A stretch of DNA of 45,882 nt from Clostridiales bacterium (GCA_029240935.1 JARDZI010000001.1:1-45882); one strand, 5' to 3'. Positions 5,478 to 27,506 are shown, counted from the first letter of the stretch. Made by a program: numbers and translations. The notes: generated from the sequence alone by a model not told the origin.

Positions 5478-6737
5478 TTACAATATTGACTTAAGGTCTT
5501 TTGTGCTGTGGTTAGGATAATCAAAGCACCTGCCTTCCCAGGTACGAATTTTTATATAATCCTTGCCTCTTGATATTAAGTATTGAGGCAGAATCGGTGT
5601 TTTCCCATAACCATTTGGGGCGTTGATGACATATGTGGGAATTGCCATTCCTGAGGTATATCCTCTTAAATATTCCATAATCTCAATTCCATCATCTACT
5701 GAGGTATTAAAATGTGTAGTGCCCATAACATATTTTGCGTGAAATATATAATAGGGTCTTACCTTGCATTTAAGCAATTCCTGGTTTAATAGTCGCATTA
5801 TATATTTATCATTATTAATTCCGTTTAAAAGTACTGCCTGATTACCAAGAGGAATTCCTATATTTGCAAGTTTTTCACAGGCCTCTTTAGATTCCTTTGT
5901 TATTTCCAGAGGATGGTTAAACTGAGTGTTAATATAAAGAGGTGAATATTTCTTCAATACATTTAACAGTTCTTCTGTGATTCTTTGAGGCATATTTACC
6001 AGCACTCTTGTGCCGATTCTTATCAACTCCACTGATGGTATAGCATGAATCTCATGAAGCAGCCAGTCGATTTCTGAATCTGGCAGAGTTAGAGGATCTC
6101 CTCCTGTAATTAGCACATCACGTATTTCGGGATTGTTTTTAATGTATTCAATTGATTCAACAAGAACCGACCTGGTTTGGTGTAAATCTGTTGTGCCGAT
6201 GTTTCTCCTTCTCTGACAGTGCCTGCAGTATGAAGAACAAACATTAGTTACGTTGATAATAAGTCTATCAGGATATCTCCTGGTTATTGCACCTGCTGGA
6301 TTAGTGTATTCTTCTGACATGGGGTCCATGCAGCCATATTGGCTCATTTCTGCTAGAACAGGGACTGACTGCAGCTTTACAGGGTTAAATTTGTCATCAT
6401 CAATAAGAGAGAGATAATAGGGAGAAATAGCCCATCTATATCTTTGCTGCACTTTTTTTATGTTCTCAATCTCAAAATCCTTCAGGTCAATGATTTTTGA
6501 TAAAAGTTCTACATCCCATATCTTGTTTTTAATCTGCCATTTCCAATCATTCCAATCTTTTTCCCTAGCATTAAGGATTGAAAGTATTTTTTCTTTTTTT
6601 TGTTGTATTTTCTCTTGTTGAAGATTGGACAGACCTCTTGGTATTGAATCTTTAATAACTAAATACTCTTCAATCTTCTTTTTTAACTCATCAGCCCTTT
6701 CTATTGCTATATTTCTAGGATTTTCCTCCTGTGTCAT
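5478..6737 (-). CDS. eam: KamA-family radical-SAM/PLP aminomutase with glutamate 2,3-aminomutase signature
   Basis: CSSYCRHCQRRR (CxxxCxxC at C167/C171/C174) and PLP-lysine context NGYGKTP (K379). By alignment from memory to C. subterminale lysine 2,3-aminomutase, D293 corresponds to K335 (YIFHAK, codon 5733-5735) and D330 to N372 (VINAP, codon 5622-5624). This is the Lys/Asn pair reported for glutamate 2,3-aminomutase. Confidence 0.7.
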   Translation of the reverse strand: MTQEENPRNIAIERADELKKKIEEYLVIKDSIPRGLSNLQQEKIQQKKEKILSILNAREKDWNDWKWQIKNKIWDVELLSKIIDLKDFEIENIKKVQQRYRWAISPYYLSLIDDDKFNPVKLQSVPVLAEMSQYGCMDPMSEEYTNPAGAITRRYPDRLIINVTNVCSSYCRHCQRRRNIGTTDLHQTRSVLVESIEYIKNNPEIRDVLITGGDPLTLPDSEIDWLLHEIHAIPSVELIRIGTRVLVNMPQRITEELLNVLKKYSPLYINTQFNHPLEITKESKEACEKLANIGIPLGNQAVLLNGINNDKYIMRLLNQELLKCKVRPYYIFHAKYVMGTTHFNTSVDDGIEIMEYLRGYTSGMAIPTYVINAPNGYGKTPILPQYLISRGKDYIKIRTWEGRCFDYPNHSTKDLKSIL

Positions 6738-7868: not shown

Positions 7869-7989
7869 TATTACTTTGCTTTTGTTGCAAGAGGTGATGT
7901 TTCTGCATATTATATTTTATATACACTTTTAATTTTATGGAGAATTATTATAGATATTGTATTATTAATAGTAATAGGAGGTTAATAGT

Positions 7990-8907
7990 TTGAGCAAACA
8001 TAGTCATTCCAATGAATGCCATAGCACCGAAGATACTGATAGGAAGCTTGTAGTATTAGATGATGAATTGTTTTCTAATGACAACAATGAAAAATTGAGT
8101 AAAAAGAATATAAAAGAATCCAAAGGCTTAATATCCTCCCAAGTCATTCAAGAATGCCACAGTTCGTTAATAGAGCCTGATGGAAGCAATGGATTTTTTG
8201 TTGCCAATATCCCAGTTGTAATATCTGAATTCGAAGTGGAAATTAATTGTGAGATAACAATAGAGCTTGACTATCCAGGCATTGAAATAAAGAGGGTTAA
8301 AAAAAATGTATTTATTACCCAATGTAGATTGCTTCCTAAACCAAAAAAGTTATTCCTTAAGGGGTTTGTAAGAAAAAACATTGAGTATGCTGCTATAAAC
8401 CCCCATGATTCCAAGGGTGGAAATAGTATAAGACATATGACATTTGAGGTTCCATTTGTTTGTACTACTGAGATTGATTATTTCATTCCCCCAATAATAA
8501 ATAAAAGTTGCAGCAAGGACATAGAAATTTATAAATCTGAGTCCTGTGAATCCAATATCTATGAAAAAAGCAATGAAAGTTATGAATACTTTAATGAAAA
8601 AATTTATTGTAAGACTGTAATGGCAAGAATCGCAGATATTGATATTATTGAGAAAAGTGATAAAGAAAGTTATAAAGAAAGTTATAAAGAAAGTTATAAA
8701 GAAAGTTATAAAGAAAGTGAAACCATGGATTATAAAGTATTTAAATCTCTGGATGAGAAAATAACCCTAATACTGAGGTTAAAGCTGCTACAGAATCAGG
8801 ATGTAAACATATATCCTAAATTAAAAAAACCTTGTAAAAAAAAGAACTCTGAAAGTTATTCAGAGGGACGGGAAGTTGTTTCTTCTTCACCTAATGGGGA
8901 AAATTAA
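7990..8907 (+). CDS. Paralogous coat-like protein with (KESY)n tandem repeat
   Basis: TTG start 8 nt after AGGAGG. Core YPGIEIKRVKKNVFITQCRLLPKPKKLFLKGFVRKNIEYA is about 50% identical by eye to the 7049 product. It also shares EYFNEK and LKLLQ motifs and contains DKESYKESYKESYKESYKESE. Confidence 0.4.
   Translation: MSKHSHSNECHSTEDTDRKLVVLDDELFSNDNNEKLSKKNIKESKGLISSQVIQECHSSLIEPDGSNGFFVANIPVVISEFEVEINCEITIELDYPGIEIKRVKKNVFITQCRLLPKPKKLFLKGFVRKNIEYAAINPHDSKGGNSIRHMTFEVPFVCTTEIDYFIPPIINKSCSKDIEIYKSESCESNIYEKSNESYEYFNEKIYCKTVMARIADIDIIEKSDKESYKESYKESYKESYKESETMDYKVFKSLDEKITLILRLKLLQNQDVNIYPKLKKPCKKKNSESYSEGREVVSSSPNGEN
8662..8718 (+). repeat. Perfect in-frame 12-nt tandem repeat (AAAGAAAGTTAT x4 plus a partial fifth) encoding (KESY)n
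   Basis: Units at 8662-8673, 8674-8685, 8686-8697 and 8698-8709 are identical. A fifth copy diverges after 9 nt. Confidence 0.95.
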
Positions 8908-22620: not shown

Positions 22621-24105
22621 CTAAAATTGAAAATAGATAAACTGCTGAGCATCATACCCTGCAAATACGCCAAATATTAATATTGCTATAATGGCAGTTA
22701 CATAGATTAACCACCTGAAGATAATGTTTTGCTTTGAAAACTGGAGTGTTAAATCCCTTTTTCTTTGTAATAAATTCATAGCTAAAACTATTATTATTGA
22801 TACTACAGCCACGAAAAATTCCTTTGAGTCCAAGCCTAGGTTGTATATTGAATTATCGATAAATATCCATGGGTTAAAATAAAACATATTTTTAATTAAT
22901 GTTATTGCATCACTATATGTATTTGCTCTAAAAAATATCCAGGCAAAATCAACTAGAATAAAGGTTGTGATTACCTGTAAAAGCTTATAATTGAATTCCT
23001 TTGTTCTTATTTTGAAGCGCTTTATAAGTTTCCCTTTAACAGGACTTAATACATCACCAATTATCTGATAAGCGCCATGAAGTCCTCCCCATATTATAAA
23101 AGTAAAATCTGCACCATGCCATAAACCGCTTACCAAAAATACAAACATTGTATTTAAATACTTTCTCAGCTTGCCATGTCTGCTTCCGCCTAATGGAATG
23201 TATAAATAATCCCTAAACCAGGTGCTAAGGGATATATGCCAGCGTCTCCAGAACTCCTTAATGGACTTTGAAAAATATGGTCTTTCAAAGTTTTTAGTTA
23301 ATCTAAAGCCCATAACCTTTGCTGCACCTCTTGCAATATCCGAGTATGCACCAAAGTCACAATATATCTGAAAAGCATAAAAAATAGTAGCCAAGATAAT
23401 CTGAAAACCCTTATAGCTTTTAGGAGAGTTATATACTGTGTTTACAAGCATACCCAATCTGTCAGCGACTACAACCTTCTGAAAAAATCCCCATATCATT
23501 AATAGGATTCCGTTTTTAATTCTATAATAATCAAAGTAGTGTTTTTCCTCTATTTGACTTAAAAAATTCTTTGACTTTTCTATTGGACCTGAAATCAGCT
23601 GAGGAAAAAAGGATACAAATAATGCATATTTACCAAGGTTTCTTTCAACCTTAACATCTTTTCTATAAATATCCATTGTGTAGCTAAGAGCTTGAAATGT
23701 GTAAAAGGAAATGCCCACAGGAAGCATTATATCAAAGCTTGGAAGGTTTATTGAAAGGCTAAGGGAAGAAAATAGAATATTTAAGCTTTCACTAAAAAAG
23801 TTAAAATATTTAAATATCGATAGTATAGATAAATTTATTGCAAAGCTTGCAAAAACCCATAATTTTTTTATTCTAATTGATTTCTTTTCATCTTCTATAC
23901 GATTTGCTCTATCTATAAGCAAACCACTAATATAAGTAACAATTGTTGAGGTTCCCAGAAGCAACAAATATTTGGGATTCCAGCACATATAAAAATAGTA
24001 GCTTGATAGTAACAGCCACACCCATCTAAATCTATGAGGTATAATAAAATATGCAATTGTAACAATAGGAAAGAAAATAAAAAAACCAATGGAAGTAAAT
24101 AACAA
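22621..24105 (-). CDS. MBOAT-family membrane-bound O-acyltransferase (AlgI/DltB-like)
   Basis: Polytopic. Conserved FWRRWHISLSTWFRDYLYIPLGG block with the MBOAT histidine. TTG start 5 nt after AGGAGGG. Confidence 0.85.
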   Translation of the reverse strand: MLFTSIGFFIFFPIVTIAYFIIPHRFRWVWLLLSSYYFYMCWNPKYLLLLGTSTIVTYISGLLIDRANRIEDEKKSIRIKKLWVFASFAINLSILSIFKYFNFFSESLNILFSSLSLSINLPSFDIMLPVGISFYTFQALSYTMDIYRKDVKVERNLGKYALFVSFFPQLISGPIEKSKNFLSQIEEKHYFDYYRIKNGILLMIWGFFQKVVVADRLGMLVNTVYNSPKSYKGFQIILATIFYAFQIYCDFGAYSDIARGAAKVMGFRLTKNFERPYFSKSIKEFWRRWHISLSTWFRDYLYIPLGGSRHGKLRKYLNTMFVFLVSGLWHGADFTFIIWGGLHGAYQIIGDVLSPVKGKLIKRFKIRTKEFNYKLLQVITTFILVDFAWIFFRANTYSDAITLIKNMFYFNPWIFIDNSIYNLGLDSKEFFVAVVSIIIVLAMNLLQRKRDLTLQFSKQNIIFRWLIYVTAIIAILIFGVFAGYDAQQFIYFQF

Positions 24106-24265
24106 ATAAATCCCTCCTGAAAGTTAGTTTTAGCACTATGGTAAAATATTCTAAAGTTAAAATAATTATATTAGCTTTAAACAGTGATGTCAATCACAAG
24201 GGAGAAGCAAGTGGCGGCCACCTGGGTCGAGAGAACAAATTAGAAGATTCCAATAAAAAAACAGG

Positions 24266-24293
24266 TTGCATAATATTACAATTATGGTATAAT
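24266..24293 (+). promoter_or_regulatory. Sigma-A-type promoter of the riboswitch-ABC-2 operon
   Basis: TTGCAT (24266-24271), a 16-nt spacer, and TGGTATAAT with extended -10 (TATAAT at 24288-24293). Located about 13 nt upstream of the aptamer. Confidence 0.5.
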
Positions 24294-24305
24294 ATCAAAT
24301 AATAT

Positions 24306-24430
24306 GAGAGTGTATCTAGGGTTCCGATTTATAATGCTGGTCCGAGCGATACAGGATTTTGTCTACACTTTTAGGAAAAAAGCCTAAAGGATGAGTCTCT
24401 ATGAGATTTGTTCTTGGGCTTTATTTTTTT
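24306..24430 (+). promoter_or_regulatory. ykkC-yxkD family riboswitch (guanidine-I-like aptamer, subtype unresolved) with intrinsic-terminator expression platform
   Basis: - Hallmark blocks: CUAGGGUUCCG (24316-24326) and CUGGUCCGAGCG (24337-24348).
- P1: GUGUA/UACAC (24310-14 / 24364-68).
- P3: UUUAGG-AAAAAAG-CCUAAA followed by GGAUGAG.
- Terminator: the 3' strand of P3 (24383-88) is also the 5' strand of a long hairpin (24379-24422) followed by AUUUUUUU, which gives ON-switch logic. Confidence 0.7.
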
Positions 24431-24448
24431 AGATTGGAGGGGTTAATA

Positions 24449-25453
24449 ATGAGCATTATAAAGGTTGATAATCTTTGCAAAACCTTTAGGGTAAAAACAA
24501 AGGAAGAGGGATTAAGGGGTAGTATTAAGTCAGTTTTTTCTCCTGTTTATAGGGAAGTAAAGGCTGTAAATAATATTAGCTTTGAGGTAGAAAAGGGAGA
24601 AATATTAGCATTCATTGGACCTAATGGGGCAGGAAAATCAACAACTATAAAAATGATGACGGGCATACTGTATCCATCAGATGGAAAAGTTCAAGTATTG
24701 GGGATGGATCCATCCCTGGATAGAAAGAAATTATCCTATAAAATCGGTACAGTATTCGGCCAAAAGTCACAGCTTTGGTTTCATCTGCCACCTGTGGACA
24801 GCTTCAATTTACTGGGAAATATTTATGAAATAGACAGGACAAAGCTTAAAAAGAGAATAGAGTTTCTAAAGGAAGTATTTGAAATAGGTGAGCTTATGGA
24901 TGTTCCAGTTAGAAAGCTTTCCCTTGGACAAAGAATTCGATGTGAAATTGCAGCATCCATTTTACATGAGCCTGAAATTATTTTCCTGGATGAGCCAACC
25001 ATAGGCTTGGATGTGGTTGTAAAACAGAGGATCAGAGAGCTTATATTACAGCTGAACAGGGAGGAGAAGACCACTATATTTTTAACCTCCCATGACGCTG
25101 GAGACATAGAACAATTATGTAAAAGAGCAATTATTATAAATCATGGTGAGGTTGTATTAAATGAAACAATTAAAAATTTAAAGTATGATTATCTGAATAA
25201 GAAGGTTATAAGTATTAAATATAATGAGCCTGTAAATATAGATGATTGCAATATTAATATTATCAAAAGCAAGGATAATGGGATCAAGGTCCAGGTGAAT
25301 ACAGCAAAGCAGGACATTGAAGAGGTTCTAACCAGGCTCATTAGTTATGGAAAGGTTACTGATATAACAATTTCAGAGCCTCCAATGGAAGAGATAATAG
25401 CCTATATTTATCAGCATAAAAAGGCAGGTGATAAGCTTGAAATCACCTCGTAA
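24449..25453 (+). CDS. ABC transporter ATP-binding protein (ABC-2 type system) with C-terminal extra domain
   Basis: Walker A GPNGAGKST, signature LSLGQRIRCEIAASI, Walker B IIFLDEPTIGLD. True start is ATG 24449 (MSIIKVDNL, GGAGGGG RBS). The ORF-track start 24401 lies inside the riboswitch terminator. Confidence 0.88.
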   Translation: MSIIKVDNLCKTFRVKTKEEGLRGSIKSVFSPVYREVKAVNNISFEVEKGEILAFIGPNGAGKSTTIKMMTGILYPSDGKVQVLGMDPSLDRKKLSYKIGTVFGQKSQLWFHLPPVDSFNLLGNIYEIDRTKLKKRIEFLKEVFEIGELMDVPVRKLSLGQRIRCEIAASILHEPEIIFLDEPTIGLDVVVKQRIRELILQLNREEKTTIFLTSHDAGDIEQLCKRAIIINHGEVVLNETIKNLKYDYLNKKVISIKYNEPVNIDDCNINIIKSKDNGIKVQVNTAKQDIEEVLTRLISYGKVTDITISEPPMEEIIAYIYQHKKAGDKLEITS

Positions 25454-26234
25454 ATATCTGCAAATTACTAAAATTACAATGGCAAACAGCCTGGTATATA
25501 TTTGGAATTTTCTCAGCAAAAATGTGTTTTTTATATTTATTATGTTTATTTATATGATGCTCTGGAAAAATATTTATGGACAAAAGGGGAGCAGTGTTGG
25601 TGGATTAACAATTAATCAAATGATATGGTATCTAGTGGTTACAGAGCTTGTTACACTTTCAAGAACTGATGTACACATACAGATAAATGAGGATGTGAAA
25701 AGTGGCAATATTGCATATCTTCTTACAAAACCATATAACTATGTGTTATACTGCTTTTCCTACTTTGTTGGTGAGGTTGGTATAAAGCTTTTAACCAATG
25801 GGGCCATCGGACTTGTAATTGGAATGATATATGCAGGCAGCTTGAAAAACTTTACCTTTACCCACTTGCCATTTATACTCCTATCACTGCTTGTAGGCTG
25901 CAGTATAAATTTCTTTATTTATATGATACTGGCATTAACCTCCTTTTGGTTTGAAGAGAATACACCCTTCTTCTGGATTTATTCCAAGTTGATTTTTACA
26001 TTAGGTGGAATGTTGATGCCAATAGAGCTTTTTCCAATTTGGCTTCAAAAGGTTGCACATTATCTACCCTTTGCATATGTAACCTATGTTCCAGCAAGGC
26101 TTACAGTTGATTTTTCATTTACAAACTTTTATAGGCAATTTTCTATTCAGGTTATATATCTTATTTTATTTTTTACTTTATCTATTGTCTTATACAGGAA
26201 GGGGGCAAGGAATCTAAATGTTAATGGAGGTTAA
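25437..26234 (+). CDS. ABC-2 family transporter permease
   Basis: Six-TM-type hydrophobic protein overlapping the ATPase stop. Start is ambiguous (GTG 25428, TTG 25437 six nt after AGGTG, ATG 25479). The N-terminal RKYLQITK...NFL pattern resembles this permease family. Confidence 0.7.
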   Translation: MKSPRKYLQITKITMANSLVYIWNFLSKNVFFIFIMFIYMMLWKNIYGQKGSSVGGLTINQMIWYLVVTELVTLSRTDVHIQINEDVKSGNIAYLLTKPYNYVLYCFSYFVGEVGIKLLTNGAIGLVIGMIYAGSLKNFTFTHLPFILLSLLVGCSINFFIYMILALTSFWFEENTPFFWIYSKLIFTLGGMLMPIELFPIWLQKVAHYLPFAYVTYVPARLTVDFSFTNFYRQFSIQVIYLILFFTLSIVLYRKGARNLNVNGG

Positions 26235-27015
26235 AAAGAGCTTAAAACTCATGTTCTATTATTTCAAGTTCAATATATCAGCTGCCATGGAATATAGGGT
26301 GAGCTTTTTAGTGCAAACCTTTGGAATGGCATTGAATAATTCTGCATTTATATTTTTCTGGTGGATACTTTTTACCAATGTACCCAGAATAGGAGGCTAT
26401 GGCTTTAAAGAGGAAATGATGCTCTGGGCTCTATCCTCCACAAGCTATGGTATTTGCTTTGTTCTATTTGGTAATGTAAATCAAATTACAAGGATGATAA
26501 TGAATGGAGAGCTTGACACTTATTTGCTCCAGCCAAAGGACCCATTAGTTAATCTGGTTTGCTCAAAAACTATATTATCAGCTCTAGGAGATGCATTGTA
26601 TGGGGTGATTTTGTTTTTTATAATCAATGGATTTAACTTGAAAAAATTTACGCTGTTTCTATTGTTGTGTATTACAGGTGCCCTAATAATTGCATCAATA
26701 CTGATAACCATACATGGGCTTAGCTTTTACACAGGAAATGCAGAGGGCTTTGCACAAATGGTTATAGAATTTATTATAAGCTTTAGCATTTACCCTGAGG
26801 GGATTTTCAATAATGCACTAAAAACTATTCTCTACACTATTCTTCCCGTGGCATTTATTGTGTACATTCCAGCTAAGGTTTTAACCCAGTTTTCTATAGT
26901 TCATTTAGTTAGTATTCTAGGCGTGGCAGTATTGTGGATTATAATTGCTTATACTGTCTTTTACAAGGGATTAAAAAGATATGAATCTGGAAACTTGATA
27001 ATAAGCAAGCTATAA
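26218..27015 (+). CDS. ABC-2 family transporter permease (second subunit)
   Basis: Polytopic protein overlapping the upstream permease by 17 nt. AAMEYRVSFLVQ is the N-terminal pattern shared with paired ABC-2 permeases. Confidence 0.7.
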   Translation: MLMEVKKSLKLMFYYFKFNISAAMEYRVSFLVQTFGMALNNSAFIFFWWILFTNVPRIGGYGFKEEMMLWALSSTSYGICFVLFGNVNQITRMIMNGELDTYLLQPKDPLVNLVCSKTILSALGDALYGVILFFIINGFNLKKFTLFLLLCITGALIIASILITIHGLSFYTGNAEGFAQMVIEFIISFSIYPEGIFNNALKTILYTILPVAFIVYIPAKVLTQFSIVHLVSILGVAVLWIIIAYTVFYKGLKRYESGNLIISKL

Positions 27016-27020
27016 GAAGT

Positions 27021-27065
27021 GGCAGCCATATGACTTATTCAAAAGTAATAAGTCATATGGCTGCC
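27021..27065. repeat. Family-A complete hairpin unit; terminator between convergent ABC-2 permease and SRPBCC genes
   Basis: GGCAGCCATATGACTTATT-CAAAAGT-AATAAGTCATATGGCTGCC, perfect 19-bp arms. Confidence 0.85.
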
Positions 27066-27074
27066 ATTCAAACT

Positions 27075-27506
27075 TTATTTCACTAATGCGGCTCTCAAAT
27101 CAGCATCGTATTCCAAATAGCCCTTTAAACAGGTTAACATATATACCCAGCCTTCTTTGTTATCTAGTAAATCACTTATTAGGTTATCATCATTCTCATT
27201 AAAACCTCCTTCATTTACTTCAATAATTGTACTTGAATTACTCAGCATATTCAGCTTAATCGTAACAGGATGCCCTTCACCATTAGAACCCCAACGGAAA
27301 ACAATTTTCTTATTTTCCTCAATTTCCACTATTTTAATGTCACCCTGTGCATTATATTCAACATAGCTCAATGTAATTGTTTTGCCTTGTTTCCATCTTT
27401 CAGAACTTGATGAAAACCAAAAGTTCCCTATTTTTGAAGGATCAACGATGGCTTCAAACACTTCATTTGCAGGCTTAAATATTTTAATTTTCGTGAGGTT
27501 GTTCAT
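27075..27506 (-). CDS. SRPBCC/AHSA1-family small ligand-binding protein
   Basis: 143 aa. IKIFKPANEVFEAIVDPSKIGNFWF... is the typical Aha1/START-like N-terminus. Confidence 0.6.
   Translation of the reverse strand: MNNLTKIKIFKPANEVFEAIVDPSKIGNFWFSSSSERWKQGKTITLSYVEYNAQGDIKIVEIEENKKIVFRWGSNGEGHPVTIKLNMLSNSSTIIEVNEGGFNENDDNLISDLLDNKEGWVYMLTCLKGYLEYDADLRAALVK

Follow-up and report, generated by a model that had tools for sequence, protein, structure and literature searches.

Within a 45,882-nucleotide (nt) stretch of DNA from a Clostridiales bacterium (GCA_029240935.1 JARDZI010000001.1:1-45882; "the window" below refers to this whole stretch), positions 24,266 to 27,015 hold a structured leader followed by an operon for an ABC transporter, made up of one ATPase gene and two permease genes. 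We hypothesize, with a probability of about 0.92, that this leader is a ykkC subtype 2a riboswitch of the "natA" form, which would sense the alarmones ppGpp and pppGpp (guanosine tetra- and pentaphosphate, together (p)ppGpp) and act as a transcriptional ON switch of the operon. Sequence features, covariation among homologs, competing folds and homology to a validated riboswitch are the observations made in this analysis. The class, its association with these genes and its mechanism were all published between 2018 and 2023, and a near-identical ortholog, the RNA of Clostridiales oral-taxon-876 (Cba), has been characterised biochemically; given 88% identity to this laboratory-validated example, the riboswitch in the window is an ordinary one.

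The aptamer extends from the 5' to the 3' strand of helix P0 (24306-24399, plus strand, as are all leader and operon features below), as delimited by alignment to the Rfam family RF00442, by a covariance model of our own (R1, which gives it 116.9 bits) and by covariation, and it forms a four-way junction of P0, P1/P1a/P1b, P2 and P3. P0 pairs GAGA (24306-24309) with UCUC (24396-24399), and its 5' strand is followed by an unpaired G24310; the resulting GAGAG (24306-24310) is invariant among homologs, and A24309 and G24310, invariant in all 24 homologous leaders, correspond to the "A-5" and "G-6" features of P0 defined in the literature (PMC9881157). The 43-nt P1/P1a/P1b stem-loop (24311-24353), drawn from the sequence, the RF00442 alignment, covariation and folding, is closed by P1, in which UGUAUC (24311-24316) pairs with GAUACA (24348-24353), and carries CUAGGGUUCCG at 24316-24326 and CUGGUCCGAGCG at 24337-24348. 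It ends in ACA (24351-24353), the published "P1-ACA" motif, which directly adjoins a very short P2 hairpin (24354-24364: GGAU, loop UUU, GUCU, with pairs G-U, G-C, A-U and U-G) seen in covariation and folding. The ACAC junction motif (24365-24368, within UACAC at 24364-24368) is invariant in 44 of 44 aligned subtype 2 RNAs. P3 (24368-24390), from alignment, covariation and folding, has eight continuous pairs, from C24368-G24390 to G24375-C24383, and reads UUUAGG (24370-24375), an A-rich loop AAAAAAG (24376-24382), CCUAAA (24383-24388) and then GGAUGAG (24389-24395), whose last five nucleotides, AUGAG (24391-24395), form the single-stranded P3-P0 linker in the alignment. The leader as a whole folds with a z-score of -3.4 against shuffles. 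An earlier note on this DNA, made from the sequence alone, had pointed to the ykkC hallmarks, to UACAC and to the P3 hairpin followed by GGAUGAG, and all of these are present.

Membership of the ykkC family, which that note had proposed to settle by a covariance search, is borne out. RF00442 (Guanidine-I) aligns to the leader over its full length (model positions 1-107) with 41.5 bits and E = 2e-6 when a 261-nt region is searched at permissive thresholds, and the scaffold is complete, with P1/P1a/P1b containing CUAGGGUUCC...GGUCCGAG, P2, a P3 with an A-rich loop, and helices supported across 24 homologs. The gathering score of RF00442 is 63 bits, and since the RNA scores below it, scanning the entire window with Rfam at gathering scores gives no match. 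The low score is due in part to the tiny P2, a helix that has 8 bp in the Rfam model. Subtype 2 RNAs scanned as controls against RF00442 behave in the same way: an ilvE-type RNA scores 47.6 bits, two PRPP-type RNAs (PRPP, phosphoribosyl pyrophosphate; two loci, L098 and L102, the latter at 5728-5849 and 7935-8056, served as PRPP-type controls), both placed behind a guanine aptamer, score 58.8 and 61.7 bits, and four other natA-type leaders score 45.7-50.9 bits. A sub-threshold Rfam score is thus normal for ykkC subtype 2 and no sign of a poor match. Rfam 15 reports no separate ppGpp or PRPP family, and its gathering threshold reports none of the subtype 2 RNAs tested (41-62 bits against 63), which means that scans at the gathering score miss such riboswitches.

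That the only Rfam family matched is Guanidine-I, and that guanidine riboswitches often control transporters, would fit a subtype 1 riboswitch serving a guanidine exporter, but we regard this as wholly improbable. The window RNA does share with guanidine-I the P1/P1a/P1b motifs CUAGGGUUCCG and GGUCCGAG and the docking of an A-rich P3 loop on P1a/P1b. The conserved A of the guanidine-I pocket (A46) is, however, a pyrimidine in subtypes 2a and 2b (C49 in T. mathranii) (PMC6031431), and the window has this subtype 2 pyrimidine, C24347, in GAGCG where guanidine-I has GAGAG; it is invariant in the 24 homologs. The RNA also has no GG after ACAC, lacks the long-range C-G pair, the S-turn G and the long P2 of guanidine-I, and has gained P0, the helix that subtype 2 adds from both ends of the aptamer (PMC6031431, PMC9881157). 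Its score of 41.5 bits falls short of the gathering score of 63, subtype 2 RNAs do not bind guanidine (PMC6003355), and the operon contains neither a guanidine carboxylase nor genes of the SugE/EmrE type. The departures from the guanidine-I consensus that the earlier note had picked out, GAGCG and the missing GG after ACAC, thus hold good, as does its preference for subtype 2 over guanidine, and the published discriminators together with the identity to Cba narrow the predicted subtype to 2a.

Subtype 2a aptamers that bind ppGpp are described as having an A that ends P0, an unpaired G, a G-C in the P1a/P1b bulge, P1-ACA, ACAC and a P3-P0 linker of 4-5 nt (PMC9881157), and all of these are found in the window, at A24309, G24310, G24346/C24347, ACA 24351-24353, ACAC 24365-24368 and the 5-nt linker 24391-24395, respectively. 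C24366 aligns to C69 of Cba (C-70 in S. acidophilus and C75 in T. mathranii, with numbering transferred via the alignment), and it is with the counterpart base that the (p)ppGpp guanine pairs (PMC6031431, PMC9881157, PMC10687018).

A PRPP riboswitch (subtype 2b), which would activate the operon as phosphoribosyl pyrophosphate builds up, has much of this in common: subtypes 2a and 2b are alike in P0, in ACAC and in the C at the guanidine-I A position (PMC6031431), the structures of the T. mathranii PRPP riboswitch (6CK5/6CK4) have the same fold, and the window linker AUGAG has a G at its third position. What distinguishes the two is a conserved G of PRPP aptamers (G96 in T. mathranii), the partner of the first C of ACAC, for which ppGpp aptamers have A, C, U or nothing (PMC6031431); in Cba numbering the rule concerns position 90, again a G in PRPP aptamers (PMC10687018). 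In the window, the base aligned to Cba position 90 is A24387, in P3. In a joint alignment, moreover, the sequence after the P3 loop reads CCC-AGG-CGG-GUAGG-UUUC in RNAs before purine genes, with an extra G-containing bulge, and CCUAAAGG-AYGAG-UCUC in the group of the window, where the 8 bp of P3 are continuous and that bulge is missing. PRPP riboswitches stand ahead of purine genes and frequently follow a guanine aptamer, and neither purine genes nor a tandem guanine aptamer are found near the window RNA; an arrangement of the latter kind is present at locus L098 (531-727 and 2772-2971), where guanine aptamers (Purine RF00167) lie directly before PRPP-type ykkC aptamers, ahead of a purine permease and purL, as in the published guanine-PRPP tandem logic gate. 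As the nearest validated relative of the window RNA also binds (p)ppGpp, we consider PRPP a very improbable ligand.

This relative, Cba, carries much of the argument for (p)ppGpp. Compared with the template sequence in the supplement of PMC10687018, the window RNA has 88% identity across the aptamer and 87% when the terminator is included, and the two share the P0/P1/P2/P3 junction, the very short P2, P1-ACA adjoining P2, a 5-nt AYGAG linker, the kind of operon, and a terminator that combines the 3' strands of P3 and P0 with the linker and has a single bulged A. The differences are a U for C in the linker, a P1b tip shorter by 3 nt in the window, different P2 and terminator loops, a base on the 5' side of P0, and the fifth P0 pair, which is mismatched in the window. 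In single-round transcription, ppGpp raises read-through of Cba from about 13% to about 53%, or, when a leader cassette is used, from 5.6% to 67%; the C69A mutant is deficient in binding, and probing indicates that ppGpp stabilises the end-to-end helix against invasion by the terminator (PMC10687018). Cba also binds pppGpp in DRaCALA, an assay of ligands by their differential radial capillary action, and natA aptamers from two Clostridiales prefer pppGpp (PMC9881157). By analogy with the validated aptamer C101, its closest relative among those tested, we predict that the window aptamer may be selective for pppGpp over ppGpp: it resembles C101 in the canonical ACA adjoining P2, in the AYGAG linker of 5 nt and in the P1 stem-loop, which is 43 nt long.

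The gene context agrees with this assignment. Subtype 2a RNAs are found with branched-chain amino acid (BCAA) genes, with glutamate synthase or with an operon of natA and two genes without an assigned function, COG3694 and COG4587; 12 of 105 precede such three-gene ABC operons, and a representative binds ppGpp (PMC6003355). The window operon, compared by Pfam rather than by COG, corresponds to the published natA context, with one ABC_tran protein and two PF06182 proteins, and the earlier note's reading of the regulated genes as an ATPase and two ABC-2 permeases is correct. The ilvE-type 2a RNAs of T. oceani and D. hafniense (PMC6003355) have the same scaffold, the same pocket nucleotides (A/G after P0, GAGCG, ACAC) and the same P3/P0 antiterminator ON logic, but differ from the window RNA in a long P2, a mismatched base within P3 and a linker of NAGG or GAAGG; in the joint alignment an ilvE RNA reads CCC-A-A-GGG-AAGG-UUCC after the P3 loop, and the ilvE example at locus L108 aligns to the natA-type model but scores 63 bits, against 117 for the window. 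Among organisms, natA-type and BCAA-type riboswitches are reported to exclude each other (PMC6003355).

Several points speak against the assignment to subtype 2a. P0 has only four Watson-Crick pairs in the window, where the fifth pair of most relatives is a U-U mismatch. The published consensus for the P3-P0 linker is (A)NARG or NAGG (PMC9881157), and AUGAG departs from (A)NARG at the third position, with G for A; the linker of the validated C101, ACGAG (PMC9881157), deviates likewise, ACGAG is found in most relatives and in C101/Cba, the U of the window falls on the variable "N" position, and AUGAG itself recurs at loci L089, L096/97 and L104/109. The window sequence matched only DNA runs from soil and sediment metagenomes, with no usable RNA run in that search. 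Finally, subtypes 2c and 2d are set apart here by gene context and published description rather than by nucleotide signatures. This last point bears on the possibility that the RNA belongs to another subtype 2 class (2c, which responds to nucleoside diphosphates, or the orphan 2d) or responds to a nucleotide akin to (p)ppGpp, for example pGpp, and some latitude of this kind does exist among natA aptamers, in that C101 is specific for pppGpp, C94 prefers pppGpp and those of Paenibacillus do not (PMC9881157). Subtypes 2c and 2d, however, go with NUDIX or HAD hydrolases and with EamA or TauE transporters, respectively, no genes of which are present at this locus, and show more prominent changes in the pocket; the natA-associated RNAs have been placed in subtype 2a, with representatives that bind ppGpp (PMC6003355), and every ligand-contacting base in the window is identical to that of the 88%-identical validated (p)ppGpp riboswitch. 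We therefore give these ligands little credence, if slightly more than PRPP, and retain (p)ppGpp as the predicted ligand.

The comparative evidence comes from two sets of sequences. Scanning relatives of the ATPase, with one genome per species, gave 80 loci, only six of which carry the leader, namely the closest, with ATPases at least 71% identical; they belong to Clostridium tagluense, C. rhizosphaerae, two other Clostridium, Lutispora thermophila and a metagenome-assembled genome of Thermohalobacteraceae. None of the 74 loci with ATPases of 61% identity or less has the full-length leader. A generic DNA pattern for subtype 2 retrieved 33 metagenome stretches, and model R1, built from seven leaders, splits the RNAs cleanly. 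The high group contains 17 RNAs (92-129 bits), of which 13 precede the same ATPase and permeases, three precede transporters of the major facilitator superfamily (MFS) and one is cut by a contig end; of the natA-type RNAs at other loci with a readable downstream region, 13 of 16 therefore stand before the same three genes. The low group contains 18 RNAs (41-63 bits), 14 of them before purE, purL, purB, xpt or purine permeases, one before ilvE, one before a symporter of the SNF family, and two with a downstream gene that is unclear or cut. The element recurs before orthologous operons in six genomes and 13 metagenome contigs, and the ATPase orthologs that follow this leader are 71-84% identical.

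The three full-length aptamers of the high group that stand before MFS_1 transporters and not before the ABC operon (L100:1607-1720, L104:10682-10802 and L109:923-1043, all on the minus strand of their loci) score 106-111 bits with R1, and each has an AYGAG linker and a terminator of its own; we found no mention of an MFS association in the cited literature on ppGpp riboswitches. The RNA before the symporter gene (L111:531-653, plus strand) is a subtype 2 RNA with an ilvE-like 3' half (CAGG linker, UUCC P0 strand), and the protein encoded downstream, which resembles sodium:neurotransmitter symporters, is probably an amino-acid transporter.

Covariation was assessed in 24 natA-type leaders, 20 of them distinct. 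Paired cells amount to 98% of those in the proposed helices, compared with 31-49% when the partners are slid by 1-3 columns, and changes on both sides occur in 10 pairs, compared with 5.2 +/- 1.3 in shuffles (0/500). Such double changes are found in each of P0, P1, P1b, P2 and P3; the 2-bp P1a is invariant. The fifth P0 pair covaries (UA, AU, UG) and one P0 G-C becomes A-U; P1 appears as UGCAU/AUGCA and as UGUAC/GUACA; in P2, AU changes to CG, in addition to UA, UG and AU. This pattern also decides between two descriptions of P1. The earlier note had drawn P1 as GUGUA (24310-24314) paired with UACAC (24364-24368), a helix that is present in the minimum free energy (MFE) fold of the single sequence, and we rejected it: it does not covary, it is broken in the two sequences that vary in the 5' strand, it would occupy invariant ligand-contacting bases, and the canonical partner AUACA changes in step with the 5' strand. 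The note's account of the structure was accurate for P3 and for the sequence that P3 shares with the terminator, and missed P0 (24306-24309/24396-24399), which together with P3 competes with the terminator. The P0 of the window, one pair shorter than in most relatives, might be taken as a trace of decay, with the RNA now a ligand-independent attenuator or a decayed riboswitch whose terminator is constitutive or under the control of a protein or of transcription speed. The ligand-contacting positions, however, are intact and are invariant in 24 leaders from different species, and the helices are kept by compensatory changes, which indicates purifying selection on the aptamer; we accordingly hold decay or ligand independence to be as improbable as a guanidine riboswitch.

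Downstream of and overlapping the aptamer, folding places an intrinsic terminator at 24379-24430, with a hairpin whose centroid lies at about 24379-24422 and a tract of seven U (24424-24430). Its 5' arm is made up of the 3' strand of P3, the linker and, as far as 24399, the 3' strand of P0; its loop is UAU (24400-24402) and its 3' arm is GAGAUUUGUUCUUGGGCUU at 24403-24421; by itself the hairpin has about -22 kcal/mol. For a transcript that ends at 24402 the MFE is -21.1 kcal/mol, with P0, P1, P2 and P3 already formed, and for the full leader it is -38.7 kcal/mol, with the terminator included. The architecture is kept in 24 of 24 homologous leaders, in which changes in the two arms compensate for each other. 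Since the P3 3' strand is common to aptamer and terminator, a stabilised aptamer is expected to give read-through, so that the ON logic suggested by the earlier note agrees with sequence and folding models alike; the ribosome-binding site (RBS) lies outside both structures, and control would therefore be transcriptional.

Upstream, a putative sigma-A promoter (24266-24293) has a -35 element TTGCAT (24266-24271), a 16-nt spacer with an extended -10 TG (24285-24286, TGgTATAAT) and a -10 element TATAAT (24288-24293); a simple promoter scanner missed it because the -35 agrees at only three of six positions. At an equal distance from GAGAG, each of the six genomic orthologs carries a TTGACA-like -35 together with a TATAAT -10. 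The predicted start of transcription is near 24300-24301, 5-6 nt 5' of P0.

From these elements we infer that the window RNA binds its ligand and regulates the operon in the following manner. RNA polymerase would begin near 24300, and the nascent RNA would fold into P0, P1/P1a/P1b (24311-24353), P2 (24354-24364) and P3 (24368-24390). The alarmone would enter the junction, its guanine pairing with C24366 of ACAC and its phosphates being contacted by A24309/G24310, G24346/C24347 and the linker purines 24393-24395, and binding would stabilise P0 and P3 long enough for the polymerase to clear the U-tract and continue into the ATPase gene (ATG at 24449). Without ligand, 24403-24421 would invade the 3' strand of P3 together with P0 and the linker, the terminator would form, and the polymerase would halt at the U7 tract (24424-24430).

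The first gene of the operon encodes a "natA"-like ABC ATPase of DrrA type (24449-25453; Pfam ABC_tran, 4.5e-27), which scores 230 bits with the NCBIfam drrA subfamily, under the family cut-off, and is a generic DrrA-type ABC-2 ATPase. Its ATG is preceded by an RBS, GGAGGGG (24436-24442). A mechanical list of open reading frames (ORFs) starts this gene at 24401, and we rejected that start in favour of 24449 given the position of the RBS, orthologs that begin with MSIIK, and the location of 24401 within the terminator. Permease 1 (25428-26234) overlaps the end of the ATPase gene, and permease 2 (26218-27015) is the last gene of the operon; both match PF06182 (ABC2_membrane_6), and the order ATPase-permease-permease is conserved in orthologous operons. 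The source is an uncultured soil Clostridium-like organism, whose nearest ATPase relative is that of C. tagluense (82%). Permease 2 has no sequence relative among solved structures, and so offers no clue to the cargo. Nor does the ligand: the expectation that it would hint directly at the cargo fails for an alarmone, as (p)ppGpp is a global signal and not a transported substrate. The study that described the association likewise found no established link, and it suggested only a tie to envelope stress by way of NatA homology (PMC6003355).

Behind the operon, a perfect 20-bp palindromic hairpin (27020-27066) lies before a convergent AHSA1-like gene (27075-27506, minus strand) and is probably a two-way terminator that closes the operon. 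On the other side, a gene for an O-acyltransferase of the MBOAT family (22621-24105, minus strand) diverges from the leader, followed by that of a 485-residue protein without a Pfam match. A consensus promoter (24165-24193, minus strand; TTGACA, 17-nt spacer, TATAAT, 12 of 12 positions) points to the MBOAT gene, so that the promoters of this gene and of the riboswitch operon stand back to back, about 100 nt apart. At one of the related loci, that of Lutispora thermophila, a T-box leader (RF00230; L003:5694-5912, plus strand) lies downstream of the operon with 103.7 bits, over the gathering score; it is unrelated to the riboswitch.

Among the distant relatives of the ATPase (46-61% identity) we observed a shorter leader, of about 80-95 nt, in 11 copies at nine loci. 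The single copies, on the plus strand of each locus as are all 11, are at L007:2717-2812, L009:1766-1848, L010:2798-2876, L014:2823-2908, L017:2843-2930, L022:2533-2630 and L023:2821-2913. Two loci have complete copies in tandem, L011 (1891-1971 and 2029-2119, within 1891-2119) and L018 (2695-2779 and 2812-2891, within 2695-2891), and the first L018 copy has its own hairpin and U-tract. In its layout, a promoter is followed by (R)AGUGA, a G, a 6-bp P1 with a small loop UAAG...GAGC, the P1 3' strand and P2, and then by UACAC, a variable hairpin, GGAG, UCAC and an overlapping terminator. The short leader thus keeps the junction of ykkC-2a (P0, A-G, P1, GAGC, P2, ACAC, P3 and a GAG-UC end) without CUAGGGUUCC...GGUCC, that is, the P1a/P1b domain, and without the A-rich P3 loop that docks there. 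Its helices are supported by 97.7% paired cells, against 78% in shuffled alignments and 28-44% with slid partners, and by changes on both sides in 13 of 18 pairs, including all six of P1. A model of the short form (R2) matches full-length aptamers end to end, with 37.7 bits and E = 1.4e-6 for the window, which indicates a shared core. The linker is only 3-4 nt long, and full-length aptamers whose linker has 3 nt bind poorly (PMC9881157).

The short leader has no match in Rfam 15, and the searchable literature holds no description of a "ppGpp-II" or truncated ykkC-2a aptamer, although publication elsewhere is possible. From the sequences we tentatively suggest, without considering it the likelier outcome, that a single aptamer lineage occurs in two forms within the natA transporter family, the full ykkC-2a form and an apparently undescribed short form; the short leader may be an undescribed minimal variant.

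For the window itself, the outcome is one of annotation: a label of (p)ppGpp-induced via a ykkC subtype 2a riboswitch can be given to the operon at 24449-27015, and its leader should not carry the name of a guanidine riboswitch. It adds one more instance, from a soil Clostridium-like organism, to a published association in which the reason why an alarmone turns on an ABC-2 transporter remains unexplained. The short variant in the relatives is the part that possibly deserves follow-up. Tandem short leaders would give a steeper response. If it is true that (p)ppGpp is still sensed by the short form, alarmone sensing would not require the tertiary docking domain of ykkC RNAs.

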